A DNA stretch of 64,000 nt from a phage: the sequence record OZ346158.1; one strand, given 5' to 3'. Positions 2,362 through 58,795 of the stretch are shown piece after piece. Position 1 is the stretch's first letter. Each line of letters opens with the position of its first letter. The notes beneath the pieces are model-generated. The model did no database searches, was not told the DNA's origin, and saw nothing but the letters and a program-made list of their open reading frames with translations. The translations under genes were made by a program, and so were the position numbers.

Positions 2362-4429
2362 ATTTATGGCATCTGCATACAACCGTTTCGGTGAGCCAAA
2401 CCCGAAAGCAACTAAGTATAAAAGTGGGGGAAGTGTGAAACGAGACTATCGTGATGAAAAAGAGGTTGAAACTGTAGAGACTGTTTTAGAAAATACTAAA
2501 ATTGTCCCTGTTCCACAACAAAATATCGGTCTGATGGCTGCACAATATTTTGGTGTGCGATCAGCATTGTCTCAAGAAGACGGTGTGACAGTTACTGCAA
2601 CATATTTCCCATATTACGACCGCTACGGAAATCTGTCAGGTTTCAAAAAGCGTGACTGGACGATTCCTAAAGAGCAAAGGGGCCATTTCTCAGTTGTTGG
2701 CATAGTAAAGGCTAACTCTCAGATGTTTGGGCAAAAGCTGTGTGCATCTTCCAACAACCGTAAGCAAATTAACGTTTGTGAGGGGGAAGGTGATGTTATT
2801 GCAGCATGGCAGGCTGCATATCAGATACAAGTAAAAGGGATTCTCACCAACGCTAAAGCCCCGGCAAAGGTGAAGCAGTGGGCTAAAGAGGTCCAGGACG
2901 GGATCGATGCAGTTATCAACGGTGGTGATCTGGCAGGAAAACCCTGCCTACCTTTTGTTGGAATTAACTGTGGATGTGCAAACGCAGTAGATACTTTTGC
3001 AAACAATGAGAAGTTTATCCGTAGCTATGGAACAGTTGTGCTGGCAATGGATAACGATGCAGCTAACGAGGTAGAGAAGCAAAAACACGTCATTAAAGGT
3101 GTCGAGGCCACGCACAATATCGCAGCATTTTTGATGGCTGATAACGTTTACCACGTAGAATACCCTGGTGAAGTAAACGACCCTGACGGTGTAAAAGATA
3201 TCCGAGACATGCTGAAGGCTAAAAAGCTGGAAGATATTGTCAACATGTTCCGGCATCCTGTTAAATATGTGCCTGATGCTGTGTCGGATTTAGAAGACTT
3301 CTCTATCGAGTCTTTGCGGAAAAAGACTTCCAACGGGGTAGATATCAGCGCAGAGTTCCCAAAACTGCAAAAAATGCTAAAAGGCTTGCACAAAGGTACA
3401 CTCGTAATGCTTACAGGCCCATCAGGTGGCGGTAAAACAACCGTAGCTAAAAAACTGGAACACTGTATTGCAAGATACCTAATGGACCCGACATGCCCGA
3501 AGGCTGATGACTATGAAGAGGATGATCGTCTATGTATGATCCATCTTGAGGAGGACCCAGAGGAAGCAATTAACTCCTTGTATGCAAACCAGTTAGGGTT
3601 TGATGTTAAAGAGTTTGTTGAAGATCCTAGCCAGTTTTTAACTGATCAAGAACACGCAGAGATTCATCAGTCATGGGCAAAAGCTGGAAAAATCAAAGTG
3701 TTCAAACATTTCGGGTCTATTCCGGTGGATGAGTTGATTACCAAGCTTAAGCAAATGGTTTGCCTGTACCATTGCCGTTATATTGTGCTGGATCACCTGT
3801 CCATGGTAATTTCAGGGCTTAATGTTAAGGATGAGCGAAAAGAACTGGACATGGCTATGACCCAACTGGCTGCGTTTTGTAAGCAGTTTAATGTGTTTAT
3901 CTTGGTGATCGCTCACCTCAAACGTACAGAGATTGTGCCTCCTAAGGACAAGGATGGTAACCCGTTACCTTTCTGGTATCCTGTGCGAAAAGAGAATTTG
4001 CGAGGATCGGCGGGGCTTGAACAGTTGAGTTGGGTAGTCATAGGTGTCGAGGCCGAAGAAATGGTGGATCGTTCTCGTGGACGTGTCCGTCTGGTAGGTC
4101 TTAAAAACCGTCCAGCAAAAACTCTAGGTATTGCTGACACTTTGGTTATGGACCCGCACACAGGTAAGTTCCATGATGCCAGTAATTGGTACTGGGACAA
4201 AGAAATGCAAATGTTTACAGACGGAGAAGGTGGGGAGGTTGTTTGGAGACCTCAGGCTATGTTTGAGGATCAGGAGCATGCAGTTGTAGAAACACCTATG
4301 GGCAAGGTTGTGGCTGATAAGGTTGTAACACCCACTGTCAAGCCTATTGACACGCAGGAAGACCTCCAATACGATGATCCATCCTCTGATCCGGTCCCTG
4401 GTTTTGAGGATGATGAAACACCTTTTTAA
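2351..4429 (+). CDS. DNA primase/helicase (T7 gp4-like; TOPRIM + DnaB-type helicase)
   Basis: CEGEGDVIAAW (TOPRIM E-G-x-x-D), Walker A LTGPSGGGKTT, 692 aa, immediately upstream of DNA polymerase. Confidence 0.75.
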   Translation: MGSKFMASAYNRFGEPNPKATKYKSGGSVKRDYRDEKEVETVETVLENTKIVPVPQQNIGLMAAQYFGVRSALSQEDGVTVTATYFPYYDRYGNLSGFKKRDWTIPKEQRGHFSVVGIVKANSQMFGQKLCASSNNRKQINVCEGEGDVIAAWQAAYQIQVKGILTNAKAPAKVKQWAKEVQDGIDAVINGGDLAGKPCLPFVGINCGCANAVDTFANNEKFIRSYGTVVLAMDNDAANEVEKQKHVIKGVEATHNIAAFLMADNVYHVEYPGEVNDPDGVKDIRDMLKAKKLEDIVNMFRHPVKYVPDAVSDLEDFSIESLRKKTSNGVDISAEFPKLQKMLKGLHKGTLVMLTGPSGGGKTTVAKKLEHCIARYLMDPTCPKADDYEEDDRLCMIHLEEDPEEAINSLYANQLGFDVKEFVEDPSQFLTDQEHAEIHQSWAKAGKIKVFKHFGSIPVDELITKLKQMVCLYHCRYIVLDHLSMVISGLNVKDERKELDMAMTQLAAFCKQFNVFILVIAHLKRTEIVPPKDKDGNPLPFWYPVRKENLRGSAGLEQLSWVVIGVEAEEMVDRSRGRVRLVGLKNRPAKTLGIADTLVMDPHTGKFHDASNWYWDKEMQMFTDGEGGEVVWRPQAMFEDQEHAVVETPMGKVVADKVVTPTVKPIDTQEDLQYDDPSSDPVPGFEDDETPF

Positions 4430-6881: not shown

Positions 6882-7753
6882 GAAGGTGTTCGTCGTATTA
6901 TTTATTACCATAAATAACATTGTGGCTTCGTGCAGTGATGCACGTCGAAAACCTCTTTAATTGACGGGAAGGCTAAGTTGACTTTTACACCTAAACATGG
7001 TAAAAGCTCAATATGCTAATCCGCAGCGAAGACTAAAGGGGTGTAGTTAAAATGGCTAGATCAGTTGATTATCACGGATATACCGTGTTTGATGATGGAA
7101 CAATACCTTTATCGAAACGTGATCATACAACAATGTTCTGTTTTGATAATGGTCGAGGTTACCTTTGCGTAACCATGTTCATCGAGGGGAAGCAGTGCAC
7201 AAAAGGTGTCCACCACTTGGTTGCTGAATGCTTTGTATCAAACCCTGATCCTGAAAGGCTCACATGGGTGAACCATAAGGACGGAAACAAATACAACAAT
7301 GCATACTGGAACCTTGAATGGACCACCCCTGGTGGAAATATCAAACACGCTTATGATAATGACCTCAGAGTAAGGCCAGTCGGTGAGTATAATGCCAACG
7401 CTGTACTGACCGAGGATGAGGTAACGGAGATTTGCGAACTGTTACAAAGTGGTTTACGACAATGCGAGATTAGGGATCTTGGGTATCCTTATGAGACGGT
7501 CAGAGCCATAAAGCAAAGAAGACAGTGGAAACATATCTCTAAAAACTACACCTGGTAGTAACGTTCAGAGACTATCGAAAGCATAGCGCCAACATAAATT
7601 GGTGCGAAGAAGCGAGTAGAGTAGGCCAGCAAGTGCGGTCGAAATGGGAGGTGCCTTGGTAACAAGGTAGTGAGATAGTCCGATCCATACAGGAAACTGT
7701 ATGGCTGTGCACGTAATGGTGCGGGGTAGCTTAACGACCTACCTGAACTATTG
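6882..7753 (+). mobile_element. group I intron in DNA polymerase gene (boundaries proposed)
   Basis: Conserved core elements read directly: P-like AATTGACGGGAAGG (about 6958-6971), Q AATCCGCAGC (7018-7027), R GTTCAGAGACTA (7563-7574), S GAGATAGTCCGATCC (7672-7686), P9 hairpin with GAAA loop (7685-7704); in-frame stop just after the 5' junction; HNH ORF between Q and R. Confidence 0.8.
7052..7558 (+). CDS. HNH homing endonuclease (I-HmuI-like), intron-encoded
   Basis: VHHLVAECF...VNHKDGNKYNNAYWNLEW HNH motif; own RBS aaagggg; lies inside the polymerase intron. Confidence 0.85.
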   Translation: MARSVDYHGYTVFDDGTIPLSKRDHTTMFCFDNGRGYLCVTMFIEGKQCTKGVHHLVAECFVSNPDPERLTWVNHKDGNKYNNAYWNLEWTTPGGNIKHAYDNDLRVRPVGEYNANAVLTEDEVTEICELLQSGLRQCEIRDLGYPYETVRAIKQRRQWKHISKNYTW

Positions 7754-11298: not shown

Positions 11299-12569
11299 TG
11301 AGCGTTATTCAACAATTCGCTAACCCGATGAATCCGCGTGAAACTGTTTTACTGGCTCACGGCATGATTAAACGCGTCAGCATCAAGCCTATCAAAGGTG
11401 CTGATCCTACAACAGGTATTAAAACCACTGTGTGGCAAGGTAAGAAAATTGAGTCCAGCCACACCATCTCTTTACTGATTTCTGAACTGGATTCCTCTGA
11501 TAACCTGCTTCAAGGTGGTGAAGAAGTCTGGATCAGCATGGGTGATAAACTGCTTAAACCGGGTCATCAAGACTCTGTCTCTGTTAAGATTGATGACAAG
11601 TGGGAAACCGTAACGCCAGGATGGATCGTAAATATCCCTTTGAAGGCAAACGAGCATAACGGTAAGACCTACTACAAGGGCTCACTGGCTAAGATGGTTA
11701 AGCTGGGTGCAGGGGAGGCTCCAGCAGCGACTCAGCAGCAAAAACAGCAACAAGGTGCACAATCACAAGGCCAGAAGCAGAAACCTCAGCAGAATGCCAA
11801 TCAGGACGTTTTACGCATCTATGGCGATGTGACTCAGATTGTTGGCAACGTGGTTACTGTTAATGACCACAAGATTGGCGAAGGTGCTATGGTTGTCACT
11901 GATGAGCAGCTTAAAGACCTGGTGGTAGGTGGTCGTGTTGCAGCCATTGTTGACAAAGACACCGGAAACATTATCAGTGGTTTCAAAGCCTACCCACCTA
12001 AGGCAGAGAACGGCACTCAAGGCTCTGGTGGCAAGCGTAAATCCTCTTACGACCCTATTGGTGTGGAGACGGGACATAGCATCAATGCGTTGCAAATCAT
12101 CCTGGATCGCGGGTTTAAGGTAGACGACCCACTAGGTGTGGCTAAAACACTGCACGTAGTCACCATTGAGCTTAAGAAAGAGTATGCTCAAGCCACCAAC
12201 CGAACTGAAGATGAAGTAGGTGCCAGTGTCGGTAATGCGGTGTTGAACGCTTGTCGCCGTATTGACAAGAAAACGAAAGTTGATGATTTTGCAGCGGCAA
12301 TTACTGCAGAAGCAAAAGATGTCTTGACTAATCTGGCTGAGCCGTTGTACGATTGGATCAAGAACGGTGCTGGGTCCACTGACCATCAAGAACCTCAAGC
12401 TGCCAAACAGGAAGCTGCTTCACAGCAAAATACTGTAGACGCTCCTCCTGTAAATGACGAGGAAGATGACCCAATGGATCAGAATCCAGCACAGTATGAC
12501 TTCTGTGATGACATACCTTTCGCTCCGGTGGGTTTGCAATATGGCAAAAGTAGAATCCACGCATTGTAA
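11298..12569 (+). CDS. putative ssDNA-binding protein with SSB-like acidic DDIPF tail
   Basis: Q/G-rich low-complexity linker ([20 protein letters not shown]) and C-terminal ...DFCDDIPF... resembling the bacterial SSB C-terminal DDDIPF tip; RBS aaggagac; in replication module. Confidence 0.4.
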
Positions 12570-13164
12570 GAGGTGCATCAAGTGTGGAGAGGTGAAAAAC
12601 CTCTCCGAGTTCTACAAACATCCAAAGATGTCTGACGGTCATCTTAATAAGTGCAAAGAGTGTTGCAAGAAGGCCAGCAGGGAGGCTGACCAATTTTCCC
12701 ACGACTCTTCAGAAAAAGGTGTGATCCGCGTGTTGTACAAGACTCAAAAGTGCAACAGTAAGAAGAGAGGTCACCCACCTCCGACTTACACCAAAAAAGA
12801 GTTTAAGGAGTGGCTATACCTAAACGGTTACAAAGAGTTGTATGATCAATGGGTAGCCAGCGGATACGACAAAAGGAAAAAGCCTTCTTGTGACAGGATA
12901 GATGATTTCAAAGGGTACTCTTTTGATAATATCCGTTTAACGACTTGGGGAGAAAATAAAGACAAGCAGACAGAGGATATTCTGTTACATAGAAGCACCA
13001 GCGGTAGACGGTGCAAAAATGTAAGGAGGTTGGACATGAATGGTAACGTTCTTAAAGAATGGGTATCCCACAATTCTTGCCGAAGAGAAACAGGGATATG
13101 TGTTGATTACTACATTCATGAAAAAATTCCAGCTCCCGATGGATACCTCTATGAATACTTCTAA
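12541..13164 (+). CDS. zinc-ribbon protein, possible degenerate HNH-type endonuclease
   Basis: N-terminal C-x2-C...SEFYK...C-x2-C arrangement common in phage freestanding HNH endonucleases; [12 protein letters not shown]...N...W resembles an HNH core with His replaced. Confidence 0.35.
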
Positions 13165-39514: not shown

Positions 39515-39690
39515 AGATACTCCGCATCACATTTAGGGCAATGCCAAATAAAATCGTCTAGTGCCTTGCACCAACGAAGATTACAACTACAGCCGCACTT
39601 GCAAATTTTATAAATACCTGATGACATACTGCACCTCCTAGCTCACTGTGTGTCAATAATATGCCACATCCTTGTGGCTTTTGTCAAGAA

Positions 39691-40935: not shown

Positions 40936-41747
40936 TGTGATGAATGGAGTCTGCTGTCTCCTCCCTGTGTTTCCACAGGGCCAGACTATCTCTTACTCTA
41001 CTTCAATAAGATAATAACCCTTTATTGTGAGATGCTTACCTTCGGCATTTCCTTCGATAGCCCTATGAACGTTACCTACGTTCAAATTTAAGGCTTTTGC
41101 ACAGGCATAGAGTGAAGGATATTCACCAACCAAGGTTTTACCTTTGTATGCCTGCACTTTCCTATAGCACTTACCTGGACAAAGTCCTGTTCGGAAAGCA
41201 TGTCTCTTATTATCTTCCGGCAAAACCCACTCTAGGTTAGACGGATGATCATTCAATGTATTGCCATCTTTATGATTCACTTCCCAGTTTTCAGGGTCTA
41301 CTGGGACATCTGGCAAACAATACAAGGCAACAACCCTTGAGGTTTGGATTCGAATCTTTTTGCCTTTGTGGTTGAAAGAGTACATATAACGGCGTTTAAC
41401 ATGCTTGTTACCTTTTCCATAACCTCCCCACAATATTGGGTGTAGCATTCCACGTTTTCCGTATACGTTTCCAACCTCATCAATCACATAGTTTGATTCT
41501 TCACCATTAAGAATGATCTTTTTCATAGAGCCTCTCCATTTCGAAGTTAGTATTTCAACTAACCCCTACACTACTTGGTTCAGAAATGTTTGTCAAGCAT
41601 CTCTGCCTTTCGTTAGTCGTTACAACCGTTCCAACTCCTGTAAGAACTAGTCACGGGATTGGCATAGCTTTCGCCTTAGCGTTCCCCGTTAGCCGGATTT
41701 ACCGACCCCTCTTATGAGGTTAGGAGAGTTTTACAACGGCCAGTTTG
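40936..41747 (-). mobile_element. group I intron in nrdD (boundaries approximate)
   Basis: On - strand: R-like GUAACGACUAAC (about 41610-41622), S-like GAGAUAGUCUGG (40981-40992), P9 hairpin CCCTGTG-GAAA-CACAGGG (40963-40980); HNH ORF embedded. Confidence 0.7.
40993..41526 (-). CDS. HNH homing endonuclease, intron-encoded
   Basis: SRVVALYCLP...VNHKDGNTLNDHPSNLEWV HNH motif; RBS ggagagg; between the two nrdD segments. Confidence 0.85.
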   Translation of the reverse strand: MKKIILNGEESNYVIDEVGNVYGKRGMLHPILWGGYGKGNKHVKRRYMYSFNHKGKKIRIQTSRVVALYCLPDVPVDPENWEVNHKDGNTLNDHPSNLEWVLPEDNKRHAFRTGLCPGKCYRKVQAYKGKTLVGEYPSLYACAKALNLNVGNVHRAIEGNAEGKHLTIKGYYLIEVE

Positions 41748-52237: not shown

Positions 52238-52781
52238 AGAAATCTCTCTCCTCAGTTTTCTTTATAAACTCCTGCATGTAGAACTCAATAGCCTCATGCT
52301 TGGTGCACTCCGGATTAATGACAAGATTGAGATCTGATTCTGCTCGTGCAATGATCGTAGCTTTAGAGCATCTCCTCAAGAACTTTGTCATATCATCTCT
52401 GTAGTTTTTGTGGAGCGGGAAGTCGCTGTAGTCTTTCTCCAAATAGTCAGCCATCCGGCGCAACGCCTCTGATAAACTGCAATCTGTATACTCGTTACAG
52501 TATTTCATCCAGTATTTAAGCACATACCCCTCAAAGGTATTAGTGCATTGGGACAAAACACCCCTGCAACGACCAGTCAGATGGTCATGATCCAAACAAG
52601 GCTTACGAAGTGGCTCGCACAAGATAGGATCAAGACCATCCTGCTCCTCTGACAATTCTTTTCGAAAGTTGGCTATGTCCTTAGAATCTTTTAACCACCC
52701 GTTATGAACGGGGGCTTTGACAGCTTTCTTTCTTATTTTACGCTTTGCGATAATCCCTCCAGATGCGCCCTGCCTATCCAA
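52176..52781 (-). CDS. endonuclease VII-like junction-resolving nuclease
   Basis: CLDHDHLTGRCRGVLSQCTN matches the Endo VII zinc-binding/catalytic signature (DHDH-x-TG-x-x-RG); start uncertain. Confidence 0.6.
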   Translation of the reverse strand: MDRQGASGGIIAKRKIRKKAVKAPVHNGWLKDSKDIANFRKELSEEQDGLDPILCEPLRKPCLDHDHLTGRCRGVLSQCTNTFEGYVLKYWMKYCNEYTDCSLSEALRRMADYLEKDYSDFPLHKNYRDDMTKFLRRCSKATIIARAESDLNLVINPECTKHEAIEFYMQEFIKKTEERDFYGDEKGIQSLRFSSDQDEIP

Positions 52782-53362
52782 TAAGCATCTGCGAGATCGG
52801 CCTTACCTTGTACCAAATTGATCCCATCTAGGAACCCAGGTTCAGATACTTCGCAGGCCTTAACCATCAACTTTTTATCCATCGTAACAGGTTTCTTCAC
52901 AGTATGCTCTTTACCTGTCTTTTTGTCAAGCTTTTTCTTCTCCTCGAAAGCAAGTTCCTCAGGAAGATGACCACGAGCAAACTTTTTGGCAGTTGTTGGT
53001 GTCACTGTGTGGACCTTAAACAGGCCGTCATTTTCACAATCAGCTAAGGCATCCCAAAGCATAACTTCAAGACCGTAAAACAACCCAGCCAGTTCACGTG
53101 TGGCATCCCCGCGTGATCCAAAGGAAAGCCCTTCCATAACTACAGTGTCAACGCCGTGCGTGTGGATATAATATCTGACCTGTTTGCAGATCCAGTCAAT
53201 ACGCTCAGCAGCTGTTGCAAAAGAAACCGTCCCTGGTTTCTTCTCTTTTGCAGATGAGCTTTGAGTTCGTAACACAACCTTATGAACAGGCTTTCCATCG
53301 TCCCATACAACGCAAGCTGTGTGTGTCAACGACTGGTCTATGGATAATAGACGCTCTCTCAT
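52733..53362 (-). CDS. RuvC-like Holliday junction resolvase
   Basis: LSIDQSLTHTACVV (RuvC motif I-like), ...ADLADAYWIGRAHL C-terminal catalytic Asp region. Confidence 0.55.
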   Translation of the reverse strand: MRERLLSIDQSLTHTACVVWDDGKPVHKVVLRTQSSSAKEKKPGTVSFATAAERIDWICKQVRYYIHTHGVDTVVMEGLSFGSRGDATRELAGLFYGLEVMLWDALADCENDGLFKVHTVTPTTAKKFARGHLPEELAFEEKKKLDKKTGKEHTVKKPVTMDKKLMVKACEVSEPGFLDGINLVQGKADLADAYWIGRAHLEGLSQSVK

Positions 53363-53694
53363 GCTTCCTCATCCTCCTCTCCTTCATCAGGAGCATAAGC
53401 CTTATCTTTGAACAATACGAGAGAGCAAAGCTTAACATCTGTTTCCACACTGGTGAACATGCATAACCGCTCGCCCTCAATCAGCTCACAATCCTCTTTT
53501 AAAACAGCAGACCATACACGGTCATCTGCGTAATCATCCGTGTACAGGATGTATGAAATGGTGTCATCTTCATACAACCGCCACATACCTGTGGCAACAA
53601 CGAATGTATTTTTTGTTTTAAGTGTCCCTGTTGTGTGATCATCCTCAAAAACAGCTTCCATAATTGCGTTATCTACAGAATTTTTAGTCATCAA
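53359..53694 (-). CDS. hypothetical acidic protein
   Basis: 111-aa ORF with acidic C-terminus. Confidence 0.5.
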   Translation of the reverse strand: MMTKNSVDNAIMEAVFEDDHTTGTLKTKNTFVVATGMWRLYEDDTISYILYTDDYADDRVWSAVLKEDCELIEGERLCMFTSVETDVKLCSLVLFKDKAYAPDEGEEDEEA

Positions 53695-54830
53695 ATTGCT
53701 CCAACATTTCTAAGAACGTTAACAAGTTTTGTTTGATCATTGAATGTTCGCTTCATATACAAACAGTCAAAAATTATACTCATCCATTGACCTACAGAGA
53801 TTCTACGATCAATACCATTGAAGTCAGTATACTTAACAACACCTTTCGGGAACCACTTCTTGTACTGATCAATAATAGCCACCCACATCTCCTTTGGAGT
53901 GCTGCACTGAGACAGTAGGTAGAATGCTGAGGCATCTCCGAACTTACCCTTACCGATAAGTCCTTGATACGGCTTGATGTTGTCAGCAGAGTCACCACAC
54001 AGCATTTGGTATCCGAAGAACAGCATTCCGTAACCACCAACCTCTCCATTAGGCTTCATGAAGATGTTCCCCATACCGTTATCGATCAGCATAGGGGTTT
54101 CCCTTACAAAATCTCCCTTATCGTTTCGCATGGGATCGAACACAAGCCCCGGTAGTGTTCTTTGGTCCTTATCAATAGAGATAATAAACTTGTTGAACTT
54201 ACCTGTTTTTTGGTAGTGGTTCCAACCTTCAAATTGCTGGATAGCTAACCAGTCATCAGCCTCGATACCGTTGATCACTTGAGCATTATACTGCTTTTGG
54301 AGATACTGTCTTGCATCTCCAAGCAGCAGTGGTCGAAGAGTATTGTTACGGTTGGCTTTGTATCTTTCCGGCATTGGAAGATCTAGTCTGAAGTTACCTG
54401 TGCCTCCCAACACCCCGACACATCGCTCTTCCGGAATACCAAGATAGTTAAGAACTGCATTTGCCTTACATTTTATTGTGTGCAAGCAGTTCTCTACAGG
54501 GTCAGGTGTTTGGATATCCAAGACATCAAAATCTTCACGTGTCCACGGAATAAACTCCTTACCAGACTTTTTACATGCGGCTTCACGGTTGGTATTCTCA
54601 GCTTTTAGCCAACCACCAACGGTGTTCTTCTGCCGCCCCCAGAACTCTGTTCGTGTTTTAAACATCTTCTTACGTCCGGAGGCTTTGTGTGTTACCTCAA
54701 TTGTCCTTTTTTCACAACTTGCTGCAGCTTGATATGCAACCTGATCGAAGTCATAATAAACTATAGCGTCAGGTTCAAGAAGATCAGCCAGACAATCTAT
54801 GGACTCAATAAGTGGATATTCTCTACTCAA
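53691..54830 (-). CDS. 5'-3' exonuclease / flap endonuclease (FEN family)
   Basis: GIEADDWLAI (G-x-EADD) and LCGDSADNIKPYQG (GD-x-SDNIPG-like) FEN motifs. Confidence 0.7.
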   Translation of the reverse strand: MSREYPLIESIDCLADLLEPDAIVYYDFDQVAYQAAASCEKRTIEVTHKASGRKKMFKTRTEFWGRQKNTVGGWLKAENTNREAACKKSGKEFIPWTREDFDVLDIQTPDPVENCLHTIKCKANAVLNYLGIPEERCVGVLGGTGNFRLDLPMPERYKANRNNTLRPLLLGDARQYLQKQYNAQVINGIEADDWLAIQQFEGWNHYQKTGKFNKFIISIDKDQRTLPGLVFDPMRNDKGDFVRETPMLIDNGMGNIFMKPNGEVGGYGMLFFGYQMLCGDSADNIKPYQGLIGKGKFGDASAFYLLSQCSTPKEMWVAIIDQYKKWFPKGVVKYTDFNGIDRRISVGQWMSIIFDCLYMKRTFNDQTKLVNVLRNVGAI

Positions 54831-55131
54831 AGACCCTCCTGTTAGTTATTCTGCAAGATGGTTGGATGCTGTAATGGAATGCATCATCACTCTCTGCAAT
54901 AAGTGACTCAACATCCCAATACTTTTCAAAAAGGAACGGATTAGACCCCCAGTGGTGGGTTATTTTCATCAAGGAGTCTGGTATCATATAACCACAGATC
55001 TTAATTACATCGCCAGGTTGAATTGTGTTTTCATGAAGGTTGCTTGCCTTCTTCAGAATCATACCTTTATGATTCTCGTTTGCATACAACTGGACAATAT
55101 CTTTATCTTCAACAATAAAAATTTTAAGCAT
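54823..55131 (-). CDS. hypothetical protein
   Basis: 102-aa ORF. Confidence 0.5.
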   Translation of the reverse strand: MLKIFIVEDKDIVQLYANENHKGMILKKASNLHENTIQPGDVIKICGYMIPDSLMKITHHWGSNPFLFEKYWDVESLIAESDDAFHYSIQPSCRITNRRVFE

Positions 55132-55190
55132 ACCTAGTTCTCCTAGTTTATAGATATCTGACCGATAATATCAGATTAATAACACTTTTG

Positions 55191-55484
55191 TCAAGACTTT
55201 TTAGTCTTTCTTGGAGAGCTTTTTGTTGATCTTTTCCTTTTGTGGTAGATTCCAAGTGCAGCGTTTTCTTGGGCGCACGTTTTAACAGTTCTCAGACAAG
55301 AACTTTCAGCTTTAGGCAGGTTTAACTCCCACCAACCAAGCCAGTAAAGTTCTGATTCAGACAACTGCTCAGATTCAGCCTTCCGATACAAGGATTGCAT
55401 ACCTCTGATGATGTCGTCCAGAGGTGTATCGAATACAAAAGCTGTCTTATCAAATTTCTCTTTTAAAGGTTTCTTAGCCATCAA
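55191..55484 (-). CDS. hypothetical protein
   Basis: 97-aa ORF with basic C-terminus. Confidence 0.5.
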   Translation of the reverse strand: MMAKKPLKEKFDKTAFVFDTPLDDIIRGMQSLYRKAESEQLSESELYWLGWWELNLPKAESSCLRTVKTCAQENAALGIYHKRKRSTKSSPRKTKKS

Positions 55485-55938
55485 GGTAACCCTCTATCCA
55501 CGAAAAGTCAGTCTTCCATTCTGGAACTTTACTAAGCTCACGCCACTCTGCAAAGCAGTCTCGGTAATACGCCTCTGCCATACCCTTGGTGATCTTATTC
55601 ACCTTAGCCAACTGACTAACTGCCTGAGCATACTTTCCACGGATATTTGCTAACCCAGGATGCACAGATGTGTGACAATCTGGGCACAACGCTATCAGTC
55701 CGACAAGCCGGATCACTCCCTCTTCGAAAGTGTAAAGTTCATGACACTCCACTGGGTGTTTGCTGCCTTTACCGCCGCACACCTCACAGGTGTAGTTGGC
55801 TTCTCTATAGCACTTCTTGCGGATCTTATCCCACTCACTCTTCTTTACAGCGTTTCGGAGGTTATTATACCAAGCTGTTTCTGGGATCAGTTGCACAATA
55901 AGCCTGCGTTCAGACTTCATTAAACGTCCGTCTTCCAC
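55474..55938 (-). CDS. hypothetical zinc-binding protein
   Basis: CEVCGG...H...CPDCH metal-binding arrangement. Confidence 0.45.
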   Translation of the reverse strand: MEDGRLMKSERRLIVQLIPETAWYNNLRNAVKKSEWDKIRKKCYREANYTCEVCGGKGSKHPVECHELYTFEEGVIRLVGLIALCPDCHTSVHPGLANIRGKYAQAVSQLAKVNKITKGMAEAYYRDCFAEWRELSKVPEWKTDFSWIEGYLDG

Positions 55939-55947
55939 GTATCCCCC

Positions 55948-56154
55948 TTATTCAAAGAAATGGGTGCGAGGGCAGGAACCTGCCTCGCCTTGTTTCACAA
56001 GCTCGTAGAGCTCACCTTGGCTTGTCTCATAAAGGCAAATACGTTTACCATTGTCCCGATATACATCGACAAGATACGCTGTTTCACCTGCAAACACGAC
56101 ACCACAGGCCAGACATGCTGCCATGAACAAAATTGCCAACAGAAAATCTTTCAT
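55948..56154 (-). CDS. small signal-peptide/lipoprotein-like protein (spanin candidate)
   Basis: MKDFLLAILFMAACLACGVVFAG hydrophobic N-terminus with Cys; near endolysin. Confidence 0.35.
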   Translation of the reverse strand: MKDFLLAILFMAACLACGVVFAGETAYLVDVYRDNGKRICLYETSQGELYELVKQGEAGSCPRTHFFE

Positions 56155-56222
56155 GGTTAAACCCTCCCTAACATTGTATGAGGTAACAATACCACGTCCG
56201 TGTGGTCATGTCAATGATACTG

Positions 56223-56921
56223 TTACAATCTTTCAGCAAGAGCCTTTGCGTAACACGCTTCAGCAGACTCTTTGGTGTCAAACCTGCCTAGCGTTTTTCC
56301 TCTGAAAGTTACTTTCCATTTGCCCCTATCTGCTTCAAATCTGACACCTCTAGATTTATCCCTCCCTAAAGGCTGTCCACGATATTCCCTGACAAACGTG
56401 CCACTTTCAAAAGACTTTTGAGCAGCAAGGGCCTCTTCTAAGGTATCGTATTCTCCTAGGTCTTTCTTATAGTAATGACCTACCTTACCAAAAGCAGCAT
56501 ACCTTCCAGTTCTAGCATGAAAATATACACCCAAGTGTCCAGTGTTAGATTTAGGTATCTTGCGTGCCAGGCATCCGTCATCTGCCGCCTTTTTTGCGTT
56601 TTCTTCTGGTGTTAACAGTTGTAGGTTTTCTATCCTGTCATCAGCAACACCATCGGAATAGAAAAGTGGCTTTATGTGATCAACTTCGTACCCTTCTGGA
56701 ATTGGTCCATAATGCATCTCCCACACCAATCTATGCCTGTAGTAATGCACGCCGCGATAGATTATATCCCTGTACCCGTCCATGTTAGTACATCCAGCCT
56801 CCTTTCCCATCAGTTGAGGTTTGTTTTTTGGTGGGGACTTCCAAAACAACCTTCCAGTGCCTGTATCGTATCTAAAGACACTCCACCAGTCAATCCCGTT
56901 ACTCATCTGTAACAACTCCAC
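56223..56921 (-). CDS. HNH homing endonuclease with tandem AP2 DNA-binding domains (freestanding)
   Basis: HRLVWEMHYGPIPEGYEVDHIKP...ENLQLLTPEEN HNH core; two AP2-like repeats (GVYFHARTGRYAAFGK..., GVRFEADRGKWKVTFRGK...). Confidence 0.8.
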   Translation of the reverse strand: MELLQMSNGIDWWSVFRYDTGTGRLFWKSPPKNKPQLMGKEAGCTNMDGYRDIIYRGVHYYRHRLVWEMHYGPIPEGYEVDHIKPLFYSDGVADDRIENLQLLTPEENAKKAADDGCLARKIPKSNTGHLGVYFHARTGRYAAFGKVGHYYKKDLGEYDTLEEALAAQKSFESGTFVREYRGQPLGRDKSRGVRFEADRGKWKVTFRGKTLGRFDTKESAEACYAKALAERL

Positions 56922-57387
56922 CTGCCTTCTTAAAGATCTCCAGCATCTTGTCTATACTTTCTGCTCGCTGATTGTACAGCTTTCCAGCCCCTGGCGGTGG
57001 TGGGAAGCTTGCCCAGCGGCTGCGGCATTTATAAATGGCCTGATGAATACGCCCTTCATCAATGTCGGCGAGAGCCTTGCACTCACGGATCAGTTGCAAC
57101 GCAATCTTGTCCTGACTGTCAGGGCCAAAATCTGGTAATCCTAACTGTTTCATGTAGTGTTTAGCAAACTTCTCCAAAACCTGGTAACGCCCAGCAGCGG
57201 AGGAGGTAAGTTTAGCATTTAGCTTAACGTAAACACCGGGATGCTTGCTGTAATCGCTGAACAGCTTGCCTCCGACTATGACATCGTACCCCCGATCCTT
57301 GGTAGGTTGTCTACCATTATCTGTGCCTTCCGAATATGCGATCATATCCAAGAAAGCTTTTCGTTGAACATTTTTATCAAGTTTCAT
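56899..57387 (-). CDS. endolysin (lambda R-type lytic transglycosylase)
   Basis: QRKAFLDMIAYSEGTDNGRQPTKDRGYDVIVGG...FSDYSKHP nearly collinear with lambda R (QRKAFLDMLAWSEGTDNGRQKTRNHGYDVIVGG) as recalled. Confidence 0.85.
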   Translation of the reverse strand: MKLDKNVQRKAFLDMIAYSEGTDNGRQPTKDRGYDVIVGGKLFSDYSKHPGVYVKLNAKLTSSAAGRYQVLEKFAKHYMKQLGLPDFGPDSQDKIALQLIRECKALADIDEGRIHQAIYKCRSRWASFPPPPGAGKLYNQRAESIDKMLEIFKKAGGVVTDE

Positions 57388-57511
57388 TTTTCATACTCTC
57401 CAGTTTACTCATAACTAACCCGATCAACAACACTGCATAGTGTGGTTATGTAGGTGCCAATTGAAAAACCATCATTCAATTGGCTACCGTTACCTACTGA
57501 ACCTCCCTACA

Positions 57512-58795
57512 TCATTCCAGCACCTCCCAAGTGTCTGGGTTAACATTTCGGACGCAGATACCGACAGGGAATTGGTAGTTGTTGTCTTCTGTCCTTGCTT
57601 GATATTTGAAGGTGACAAACTTGCCGATCATTTCCTGCATCCTGTCATAGCTACGCTCCTCGTGCGTGCCTTTCATCTTCATTTTAACAATAACACCTTC
57701 CTTGTCAACACAGATAAGAACACCTTCATCATTCTTATCTTTCTCAACGTCAATAACTTTCACCTCTGCGTCGTTGAACTTTTTCCATTTCAATGCTTCA
57801 GATGTTCGCTGACCGTACTCGTATTTACCGCAGAAATTACGCATGATAGTACCTTCATATCCTTCGGACATGAATATACCAACAGATTCTTCGCAATGAT
57901 CAACTGTGTACGCAAGCTCTGCGTCAACAACCTTGATATGGTCAAGCATCAGAGTGGTAACGGTATCCTCTGCATCCATAAGATCCTTGCAGCGTCCAGA
58001 CTCTGTTTCTGGATCCCACCACACCTTGTCGCTAGGAATATCAAAAATGTGATACTCCAGATCGTAGCTACAGTACCCACCGTAACGCAAATCATCACGA
58101 ACAGGCTCAACATCGACAGGAATATCTACCTTGTTGAAGTTTTTGTATGTTGATAAGCCTGCCTTAATTGCTGCATGACGGCGTTTTTTATCTGCCTCAT
58201 AGTCTTTATCGATCTCGGCCTGAATCTCTTCCTGTGTGCGCCACCGTTTAGCAAGAGACACTATTTTCTGCAAAGGAAGACCATGAATGTATAGTTCCCC
58301 ATCAAGTTGTTTAATCCCAGTGGTAGAATGGAAAGAACGAAGTTGCTCTAAAAGCTTTCCTTGAATAGGGTAGGACTTATTACCACGGGAAATAAATTTA
58401 GGCTCACCATTTTGGAAAACAACAAGCAGACGAAGGCCATCTAACTTACGCAAGATCCAGCAAGGTAATTTAAGTGCCTTGCCACGCTTCAGGTAGTCAT
58501 GCACCAGCATGGGTAAAAGATCAACACCCTGCTCGCAATCTTCCATGTTTTCAACATACCCCAGACGGACTTGTTTTTCCCACTTGCTGATAGCCTCAAG
58601 CTCGGCCTGTTGCTCAGCTGTAGTCTCGTTGGCACGACCTACGTTCTTAGGTGTGCATACCGTCTCTTTGTACTGCAGTTTACCATCAAGCTTGCCAAAC
58701 TCTACGATAACCTTATCACCATCCGTGAATACTTTCCACTGTTGGTAGCTGCCATCTTTATTCAGTGCGTACAGTGTTGTTTTGATCTGATGCAT
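57512..58795 (-). CDS. ATP-dependent DNA ligase
   Basis: Motif I KLDGLR (K-x-DG-x-R), DGELY, EGTIM, KWKKF nucleotidyltransferase motifs. Confidence 0.85.
   Translation of the reverse strand: MHQIKTTLYALNKDGSYQQWKVFTDGDKVIVEFGKLDGKLQYKETVCTPKNVGRANETTAEQQAELEAISKWEKQVRLGYVENMEDCEQGVDLLPMLVHDYLKRGKALKLPCWILRKLDGLRLLVVFQNGEPKFISRGNKSYPIQGKLLEQLRSFHSTTGIKQLDGELYIHGLPLQKIVSLAKRWRTQEEIQAEIDKDYEADKKRRHAAIKAGLSTYKNFNKVDIPVDVEPVRDDLRYGGYCSYDLEYHIFDIPSDKVWWDPETESGRCKDLMDAEDTVTTLMLDHIKVVDAELAYTVDHCEESVGIFMSEGYEGTIMRNFCGKYEYGQRTSEALKWKKFNDAEVKVIDVEKDKNDEGVLICVDKEGVIVKMKMKGTHEERSYDRMQEMIGKFVTFKYQARTEDNNYQFPVGICVRNVNPDTWEVLE

Follow-up and report, generated by a model that had tools for sequence, protein, structure and literature searches.

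How did a nuclease gene come to lie between the endolysin gene of a coliphage and the promoter of the gene that follows, and does it still move? We addressed this question for the window, a stretch of 64,000 nucleotides (sequence record OZ346158.1) that comes from an rV5-like Vequintavirus. No deposited genome matches the window throughout, and its identity to Escherichia phage nom is 92.8-99.8% depending on the segment, with several indels. The endonuclease region agrees at 100% identity with Escherichia phages nom, rV5_ev147 and rV5_ev156, and about 120 other Vequintavirus records match it at 95-99%.

Gene structure and domain content of the predicted protein

The longest open reading frame at this locus in the ORF list spans 56223..56921 on the minus strand and would encode 232 aa from a GTG start, which is the form in which a previous sequence-only reading had described the gene. 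The frame itself is real, but translation most likely begins at the ATG at 56906 rather than at the GTG at 56921. We prefer the ATG because identical DNA in GenBank records is annotated as 684 nt, and because orthologues on the contigs L008 and L009, which are 80-81% identical, have an in-frame TAG directly before the same ATG. From this conserved ATG, the predicted coding sequence (HEG1; 56223..56906, minus strand) encodes 227 aa.

The upstream neighbor is a true lambda R homologue, a lambda R-type endolysin gene of 162 aa (56899..57387, minus strand; PHROG 90) that matches lambda lysozyme (PDB 1AM7) with E = 2.9e-49. The overlap between the two genes, already recognized from the sequence, amounts to 8 nt: the endonuclease ATG lies over the endolysin stop codon in the start/stop overlap ATGAGTAA (56899..56906, minus strand), and L008 and L009 have the identical 8-nt arrangement. 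In addition, a GGAG is found at 56916..56919, 9 nt upstream of the ATG and within the last endolysin codons. Overlap and GGAG together are compatible with translational coupling of the endonuclease to the endolysin. On the other side of the gene, a promoter scan locates the sigma-70-like promoter of the next gene at 56186..56214 (minus strand), with TTGACA and TATTGT separated by 17 nt and an extended -10 TG; it corresponds to P90 in rV5. Upstream of P90, the scan returned matches only inside the endonuclease coding region, and their number (3 found versus 3.2 expected) is no more than chance, so the candidate of a separate promoter for the endonuclease gene was dropped.

The endonuclease protein matches PHROG 99 ('HNH endonuclease', E = 6e-49), and the gene is labelled 'putative HNH endonuclease' in the FV3 record and 'putative homing endonuclease' in the RudolfGeigy record. 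No paralogue of the gene was found within the 64-kb window, whose other HNH genes belong to a different family, PHROG 59. The HNH core, which had been called canonical, scores well above the curated Pfam cut-off of 24.8 bits: HNH_3 (PF13392) gives 52.5 bits (E = 3.7e-14) over profile positions 1-45 of 46 and places the core at aa 55-104 (56595..56744, minus strand). In the family alignment, Asp76-His77, Asn94 and Asn103 are invariant or nearly so, the 80%-identical orthologues included.

A search of PDB sequences with the single endonuclease sequence gave no match, and the same search with the family profile found I-HmuI together with AP2 proteins. In this profile search (E = 5.7e-4), D76-H77, N94 and N103 line up with the VDH...TNL...KIN motif of I-HmuI. 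Foldseek comparison of the predicted model with the PDB likewise ranks I-HmuI (1u3e) first (E = 4.1e-4, probability 1.00), and the nuclease module of the model shows the beta-beta-alpha-metal fold, with pLDDT mostly 80-93 at aa 11-80 and down to 64 at aa 81-90. We regard the protein as a putative HNH_3, I-HmuI-like endonuclease whose catalytic residues are intact. I-HmuI of Bacillus phage SPO1 (PDB 1U3E) shares with it the HNH_3 core and the aligned D-H...N...N residues, and both would be modular monomers in which the nuclease is followed by DNA-binding modules, as the model suggests for the window protein; sequence identity between the two, however, is only 18%. I-HmuI is encoded in a group I intron, has DNA-binding modules that are not of the AP2 type, and nicks one strand.

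Two AP2-type repeats had also been proposed, and they are recovered by family-profile matches, by alignment of one repeat with the other, by the model and by Foldseek, with a Pfam total that stays below the cut-off. The first repeat covers approximately aa 121-168 (56403..56546, minus strand); it is recognized by the family profile against the AP2 domains of WRI1, TEM1 and ERF, is present in the model and aligns to the second. The second, at approximately aa 184-225 (56232..56357, minus strand), is likewise present in the model and contains the best Pfam AP2 stretch (aa 184-218, E = 1.1e-5, below the cut-off). In total, Pfam AP2 (PF00847) finds two stretches with 26 bits versus a cut-off of 33.3. 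Searched against PDB sequences, the family profile matches WRI1 (E = 8.8e-8), TEM1 (E = 7.5e-5) and ERF096 (E = 9e-3), and the two repeats are 33% identical to each other (pairwise E = 0.005). According to the family alignment, the second repeat occurs only in close orthologues of the window protein, whereas a single repeat is found in the shorter relatives (165-178 aa).

The AlphaFold model (mean pLDDT 76.8, pTM 0.48) consists of the nuclease module (aa 1-111) and two strand/helix units (127-168 and 187-225) with low-confidence linkers. Both copies in the modelled C-terminal part show a three-stranded sheet plus a helix: strands 127-130, 135-142 and 146-153 with helix 156-168 in unit 1, and strands 187-191, 196-201 and 204-209 with helix 212-225 in unit 2. 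These AP2 units are predicted at moderate confidence (pLDDT 62-86). The second-ranked Foldseek match is the double-AP2 factor WRINKLED1 (E = 2e-3), and AtERF1 and TEM1 are also matched.

The HNH-AP2 homing endonucleases are the family for which PMC10448857 cites its reference 45, reportedly Magnani et al. 2004. An N-terminal HNH domain combined with a C-terminal AP2 domain defines a recognized homing-endonuclease family of phages, cyanobacteria and protists, and nuclease genes are known to mark where exchanged segments end (PMC10448857). The IPA-HNH proteins of the Vibrio phage ICP1, which belong to this family, have the same domain order as the window protein, and their genes are likewise free-standing, adjoin important phage genes and lie at the borders of exchanged segments; unlike the window protein, however, they do not match the HNH_3 Pfam model (PMC10448857).

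AP2-type domains of such nucleases have elsewhere been co-opted as regulators (PMC10448857), and the window gene, with its two AP2 repeats, lies directly upstream of a sigma-70-like promoter. The protein could in principle be a DNA-binding regulator that no longer cuts and that controls the adjacent promoter or the endolysin through these repeats. We consider this extremely improbable. Conservation extends over the entire HNH_3 core with its D-H...N...N residues, also in the 80%-identical orthologues, and on L009 both the promoter and the downstream gene differ, yet the gene is still attached to the endolysin.

Carriers, empty sites and the limits of the block

A comparison of presence and absence with empty-site alleles had been named beforehand as the check on homing, and its result is clearly in favor of that interpretation: both kinds of allele are found. 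A 2.1-kb query is complete in 11 of 122 related records, and the others listed are 62% covered in two pieces, with about 700 bp missing. Close copies of the protein (96.5-100% identity) are confined to those 11 records, where all of them adjoin the endolysin and all are full length; the next-best protein match has 43% identity. With a probe for the rV5 empty junction, 88 records have the junction uninterrupted, rV5 included, and in a junction comparison of 18 phages the empty site of rV5, JeffSchatz, WalterGehring and others was checked base by base. At the same spot, 20 records have a different HNH-AP2 gene. Judged from these records, about one in ten rV5-like coliphages has the endonuclease gene directly after the endolysin gene.

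The gene was also described as free-standing, and this agrees with its position: it is bounded by the stop codon of the endolysin on one side and the next promoter on the other, outside any intron or intein, in a region with no intron signal. Rfam at curated thresholds gave no match in the whole window. An intron context for the endonuclease was rejected, as relaxed thresholds produced only a chance snoRNA match around the gene.

Aligning carriers with empty-site alleles delimits the putative mobile block to 56219..57010 of the window, which comprises the endonuclease gene and the final ~110 nt of the endolysin gene. We set these limits because, when the window and 5 other carriers were aligned over 8 kb with 7 non-carriers, the fixed differences between the two groups are confined to 56903..57010, plus one at 57034; the same alignment has none downstream of 56219. 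The boundaries were taken from gap-tolerant pairwise alignment and direct inspection, and a three-sequence MAFFT alignment misplaced the short empty allele.

The upstream break lies 110 nt inside the endolysin gene and not at its stop codon. In the junction comparison it falls exactly past ...CGCTGGGC at 57011, directly after ...AAATGCCGCAGCCGCTGGGC, and this one breakpoint is common to all eight carriers examined. The downstream junction, from pairwise alignment and the 18-phage comparison, is at 56215..56222 (minus strand), where the stop codon TAA is followed by CAGT (56222..56219) and then by ATCA (56218..56215); identity with the empty-site allele restarts at 56218. The empty allele reads ...GATTGATCA immediately before TTGACA, leaving 3 nt between the endolysin stop and the -35 box; the window has CAGTATCA between the endonuclease stop and TTGACA.

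The endolysin chimera and the case for homing

The upstream break has a counterpart in the protein. Comparison with the endolysins of rV5, EduardKellenberger and V18 identifies the endolysin of the window as a chimera, in which the first ~125 aa are of the rV5 type and the tail, 'FPPPPGAGKLY', is of the V18/murica type. The endolysin segment that moves with the endonuclease gene (56907..57010, minus strand) encodes this foreign '...SFPPPPGAGKLYNQRAESIDKMLEIFKKAGGVVTDE' tail. The segment is only 62-64% identical to alleles without the gene, and the tail resembles the V18 and EduardKellenberger endolysins, with 83% nucleotide identity over 83 nt. Across 11 of 11 carriers the segment is 96-100% identical, and at 96% or more it occurs in no other record. 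A record with the foreign tail at this level and without the gene, as expected for precise loss, was looked for and none was found. The foreign last ~110 nt of the endolysin are thus perfectly linked to the gene, in the manner of donor flank co-conversion.

A search of 5.8 billion proteins provided two intermediate orthologues of the endonuclease, with 81% and 80% identity, from metagenomic phage contigs (L008 and L009/L010). On all three contigs, the gene immediately follows an endolysin that is of the V18 type from end to end, including the same tail. The wider gene order of these contigs differs, and the downstream neighbor on L009 is unrelated; the link between gene and endolysin is constant in three different genomic contexts. 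We place the predicted target of the enzyme within or beside the 3' end of the endolysin gene mainly because this end is the one constant partner of the endonuclease gene.

Taken together, these comparisons suggest that the window contains what is probably a free-standing HNH-AP2 homing endonuclease gene, active now or until recently. In the mechanism that we propose, one transcript would cover the endolysin and endonuclease genes, and translation of the endonuclease would be coupled to that of the endolysin through the ATG/stop overlap and the GGAG. The product would act as a modular monomer, in which the two AP2 repeats read an extended DNA site and the I-HmuI-like HNH core nicks or cuts that site. 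During co-infection, the enzyme would cut the DNA of a non-carrier relative in or beside the rV5-type endolysin 3' end and its junction with the promoter. Repair would then copy from the carrier genome, which would install the gene with its linked endolysin tail and replace the proposed target. The copied block would be bounded by the first homology on each side, namely the conserved KCRSRWA codons upstream and the promoter downstream, and the foreign tail would protect carriers from self-cleavage. A caveat to this last step is that the linkage of tail and gene may instead reflect the lack of homology for crossovers in a segment of 62-64% identity. A further caveat to the homing reading is that the AP2 match falls below the Pfam curated cut-off and that the model, with its pTM of 0.48, is of moderate confidence.

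Recent spread of the block would be expected to leave it nearly invariant within divergent flanks, and this is what we see: the window, RudolfGeigy, nimi, ev168 and isim share it at 99.9-100% identity, and their flanks differ by up to 8%. In the ligase flank (57400-58400), RudolfGeigy and nimi are 91.9-92.7% identical to the window, and ev168 and isim 98.8%. On the other side, window positions 52400-55400 are 99.8-100% identical to WalterGehring and positions 55400-55950 are 100% identical to JeffSchatz, both of which are without the gene. A second sublineage of the gene, at ~97%, is present in FV3 and YN3. In these alignments the distribution of the gene does not track the ancestry of its flanks, although a single gain with general recombination could also give such a pattern.

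Indeed, the upstream breakpoint common to eight of eight carriers fits a single acquisition, after which ordinary homologous recombination acted within a very mosaic group, and with 11 carriers versus 88 intact empty junctions, the gene, if it is spreading, has not spread far. The gene might then be a relic that entered once, through homing or illegitimate recombination, has since lost its mobility, and was scattered by homologous recombination of its mosaic flanks. Besides the shared breakpoint, this explanation has in its favor that the flanks are mosaic with or without the gene and that carriers are a small minority. We nevertheless consider it unlikely, given that the catalytic residues are intact, that 11 of 11 copies are full length, and that the block remains 99.9-100% identical in backgrounds up to 8% different nearby. 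Selection on the gene also speaks against a relic: dN/dS is 0.11 and 0.08 versus the distant orthologues, for which synonymous sites are saturated, and 0.12-0.19 within Vequintavirus. These ratios show strong purifying selection on the endonuclease gene.

Purifying selection of this strength would equally suit a domesticated nuclease that is not purely selfish and serves the phage, by degrading host or competitor DNA or by processing phage DNA. The start/stop overlap could be read in the same sense, as tight translational coupling to a phage gene, and phage functions can be served by HNH proteins with the build of homing endonucleases (PMC10448857, discussion). Domestication is nonetheless highly unlikely in our view. 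The gene is dispensable, because 88 related records are empty at the junction and 20 have a different nuclease gene, and it always moves with a piece of the neighboring gene, as homing elements do.

Homing, the reading that we prefer, has a counterpart in the Seg and Mob genes of phage T4. These encode free-standing homing endonucleases, the Seg enzymes being of the GIY-YIG type and the Mob enzymes of the HNH type with a zinc finger, and they cause 'intronless homing' with localized marker exclusion. The window gene resembles them in lying between two phage genes, in its variable presence among relatives and in the apparent co-conversion of adjacent donor markers, and in both cases the neighboring gene of genomes without the element is the presumed target. 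The T4 cases, however, have genetic and biochemical evidence, whereas the window gene has comparative evidence only.

A variable locus and its neighbors

The different nuclease gene found in 20 records, among them CM1, 241Ecol014PP and DrSchubert, is a PHROG 99 gene of 253 aa that takes the place of the window gene between endolysin and promoter. Its identity to the window gene over the HNH region is ~35%. In EduardKellenberger, a third gene (238 aa, PHROG 99) is located upstream of the endolysin. Both resemble the window gene in family, in the small target gene and in their presence/absence behavior, but the first has a spacer of its own and is paired with an entirely different endolysin allele, and the second lies on the other side of the endolysin. 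From these alleles, we view the endolysin locus as a hot spot with three states: empty, occupied by the window gene, or occupied by the second nuclease gene. In V18, a C-terminal remnant of the 238-aa gene is fused in frame to DNA ligase.

The window has other insertions that had been attributed to homing endonucleases. Two HNH genes were described as intron-borne, and they are both real and polymorphic among related records. One of them is in the DNA polymerase gene, where a full-length match to a group I intron (6902..7703, plus strand; E = 4e-8, below the Rfam curated score) encloses an ORF at 7052..7558 that belongs to PHROG 59 (E = 9e-38). In nrdD, a weaker group I intron match (40963..41250, minus strand; E = 8e-5) is accompanied by an ORF at 40993..41526 with an HNH_3 match (E = 8e-7). 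The DNA polymerase and nrdD insertions are absent from phage nom; among related records, the first is found in 31 of 121 and the second in 28 of 120. Both introns assort independently of the endolysin-side gene: WalterGehring has the introns only, nom the gene only, and isim all three.

A supposed degenerate HNH gene at 12541..13164 proved to be something else. The ORF there (12454..13164) belongs to an endonuclease VII family (PHROG 1035, E = 2e-41), has no Pfam match, and is also present in nom, so that it provides no evidence of a homing insertion. Of the three or four homing-endonuclease insertions counted in the window, three are accordingly demonstrable and this fourth is not.

The gene downstream of the mobile block (55948..56154, minus strand) encodes a 68-aa protein with an N-terminal hydrophobic, signal-like segment. 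It is a homologue of rV5 ORF 90 and belongs to PHROG 4641, a family whose function is given as unknown. A role as a lysis accessory had been suggested for it, and we find nothing in favor of this: the ORF is preceded by its own sigma-70-like promoter, it has no conserved lipobox, because the cysteines of the hydrophobic segment are missing in the L008 homologue, and the rV5 paper describes no lysis cassette around the lysin gene (PMC3606486). For the same lack of conserved N-terminal cysteines, we rejected the protein as an o-spanin candidate.

Vequintavirinae are known to be rich in such elements. Phage CB7 has 21 HNH genes (PMC7344957), the rV5 terminase contains an intron-borne gene (PMC3606486, PMC4591320), and the authors of the BASEL collection link gene conversion in their larger phage genomes to homing endonucleases (PMC8594841). 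In the literature, including the FV3 and rV5 papers, we found no description of this gene, of the chimeric endolysin or of the three-state locus. The gene is an uncharacterized member of a known selfish-element family, already annotated by homology, and such elements are expected in Vequintavirinae. Its value is modest: it offers a clean, testable case of putative intronless homing that rebuilds a lysis gene, and leaves what is known of homing endonucleases unchanged. The BASEL collection has isolates of all three locus states, and homing, target-site immunity and AP2 recognition are directly testable with them.

An endolysin recombinant made by a selfish element would matter for phylogenies of the endolysin and nearby genes and for the taxonomy of rV5-like therapeutic phages. 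More tentatively, and with more doubt than confidence, we suggest that the Vequintavirus endolysin 3' end is a landing site contested by at least three HNH-AP2 enzymes that are unrelated by descent, each with a cleavage-resistant endolysin allele. If this were true, the tandem-AP2 enzyme would offer a natural and tractable system in which to study the reading of a long DNA target by AP2 repeats. Selfish nucleases would then also drive the diversification of the endolysin, into alleles with the rV5-type tail, the chimera with the FPPPP tail and the wholly different CM1-type allele.

Other nuclease genes at the endolysin locus

The gap between endolysin and promoter is occupied by a different, 253-aa HNH-AP2 gene in 20 records, including 241Ecol014PP and CM1 (2558..3871 in both locus sequences, L023 and L024), and this gene is accompanied by an endolysin allele of 165 aa that has diverged strongly. 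It ends in GAT TGA, two codons that appear to be what was originally the end of the endolysin. Phage EduardKellenberger has a third HNH-AP2 gene, located between ligase and endolysin (2946..3662 of L004). In V18, the C-terminal 31 residues of this third gene are joined in frame to the DNA ligase (2946..4268 of L005), and the fused piece is apparently a remnant left by a deletion.

About 19 GenBank records labeled 'Campylobacter phage' (MG0656xx, host given as Campylobacter jejuni) share 96-97% identity with E. coli Vequintaviruses over the endolysin locus, and these host labels look doubtful.

Small proteins downstream of the endolysin locus

The 68-aa protein encoded at 55948..56154 on the minus strand has a hydrophobic, signal-like segment at its N terminus and two conserved cysteines outside that segment. 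We considered whether it could be a lipoprotein (o-spanin), which is unlikely because the homologue on L008, a metagenomic contig, lacks the cysteines found within the hydrophobic segment.

The neighboring gene (55474..55938, minus strand) encodes a 154-aa CxxC...H...CxxC protein that matches PHROG 5200, 'HNH endonuclease', at E = 4.5e-72, and to which a Pfam search assigned no family. Its database annotation is homing endonuclease, yet the gene is kept in all relatives examined and so shows the behavior of a core gene, not of a mobile element.

Insertions and differences elsewhere in the window

The ORF at 12454..13164 (plus strand), which the sequence-only reading had taken for a possible degenerate HNH gene, belongs to an endonuclease VII family (PHROG 1035, E = 2e-41). 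A Pfam search gave no match for it. It is also present in the related Escherichia phage nom, with the two genomes differing over about 100-150 bp at 12503..12651. Other differences from nom are the absence from the window of about 6.4 kb at about 28595 and of about 1 kb, including a 966-nt hypothetical gene, at 39639..39659.

At 6902..7703 (plus strand), the DNA polymerase gene is split by a group I intron, where the full-length RF00028 model matches with E = 4e-8 and 38.9 bits, a score under the curated 50 bits. The HNH ORF that the intron carries (7052..7558) matches PHROG 59 (E = 9e-38). A second, group I intron-like insertion (RF00028, E = 8e-5) is found in nrdD, the anaerobic ribonucleotide reductase gene, at about 40963..41611 on the minus strand, and its ORF (40993..41526) has both HNH_3 and an I-HmuI NUMOD-like domain. 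The polymerase intron occurs in 31 of 121 related records and the nrdD insertion in 28 of 120; nom has neither. These two insertions and the nuclease gene beside the endolysin assort independently of one another among the phages.
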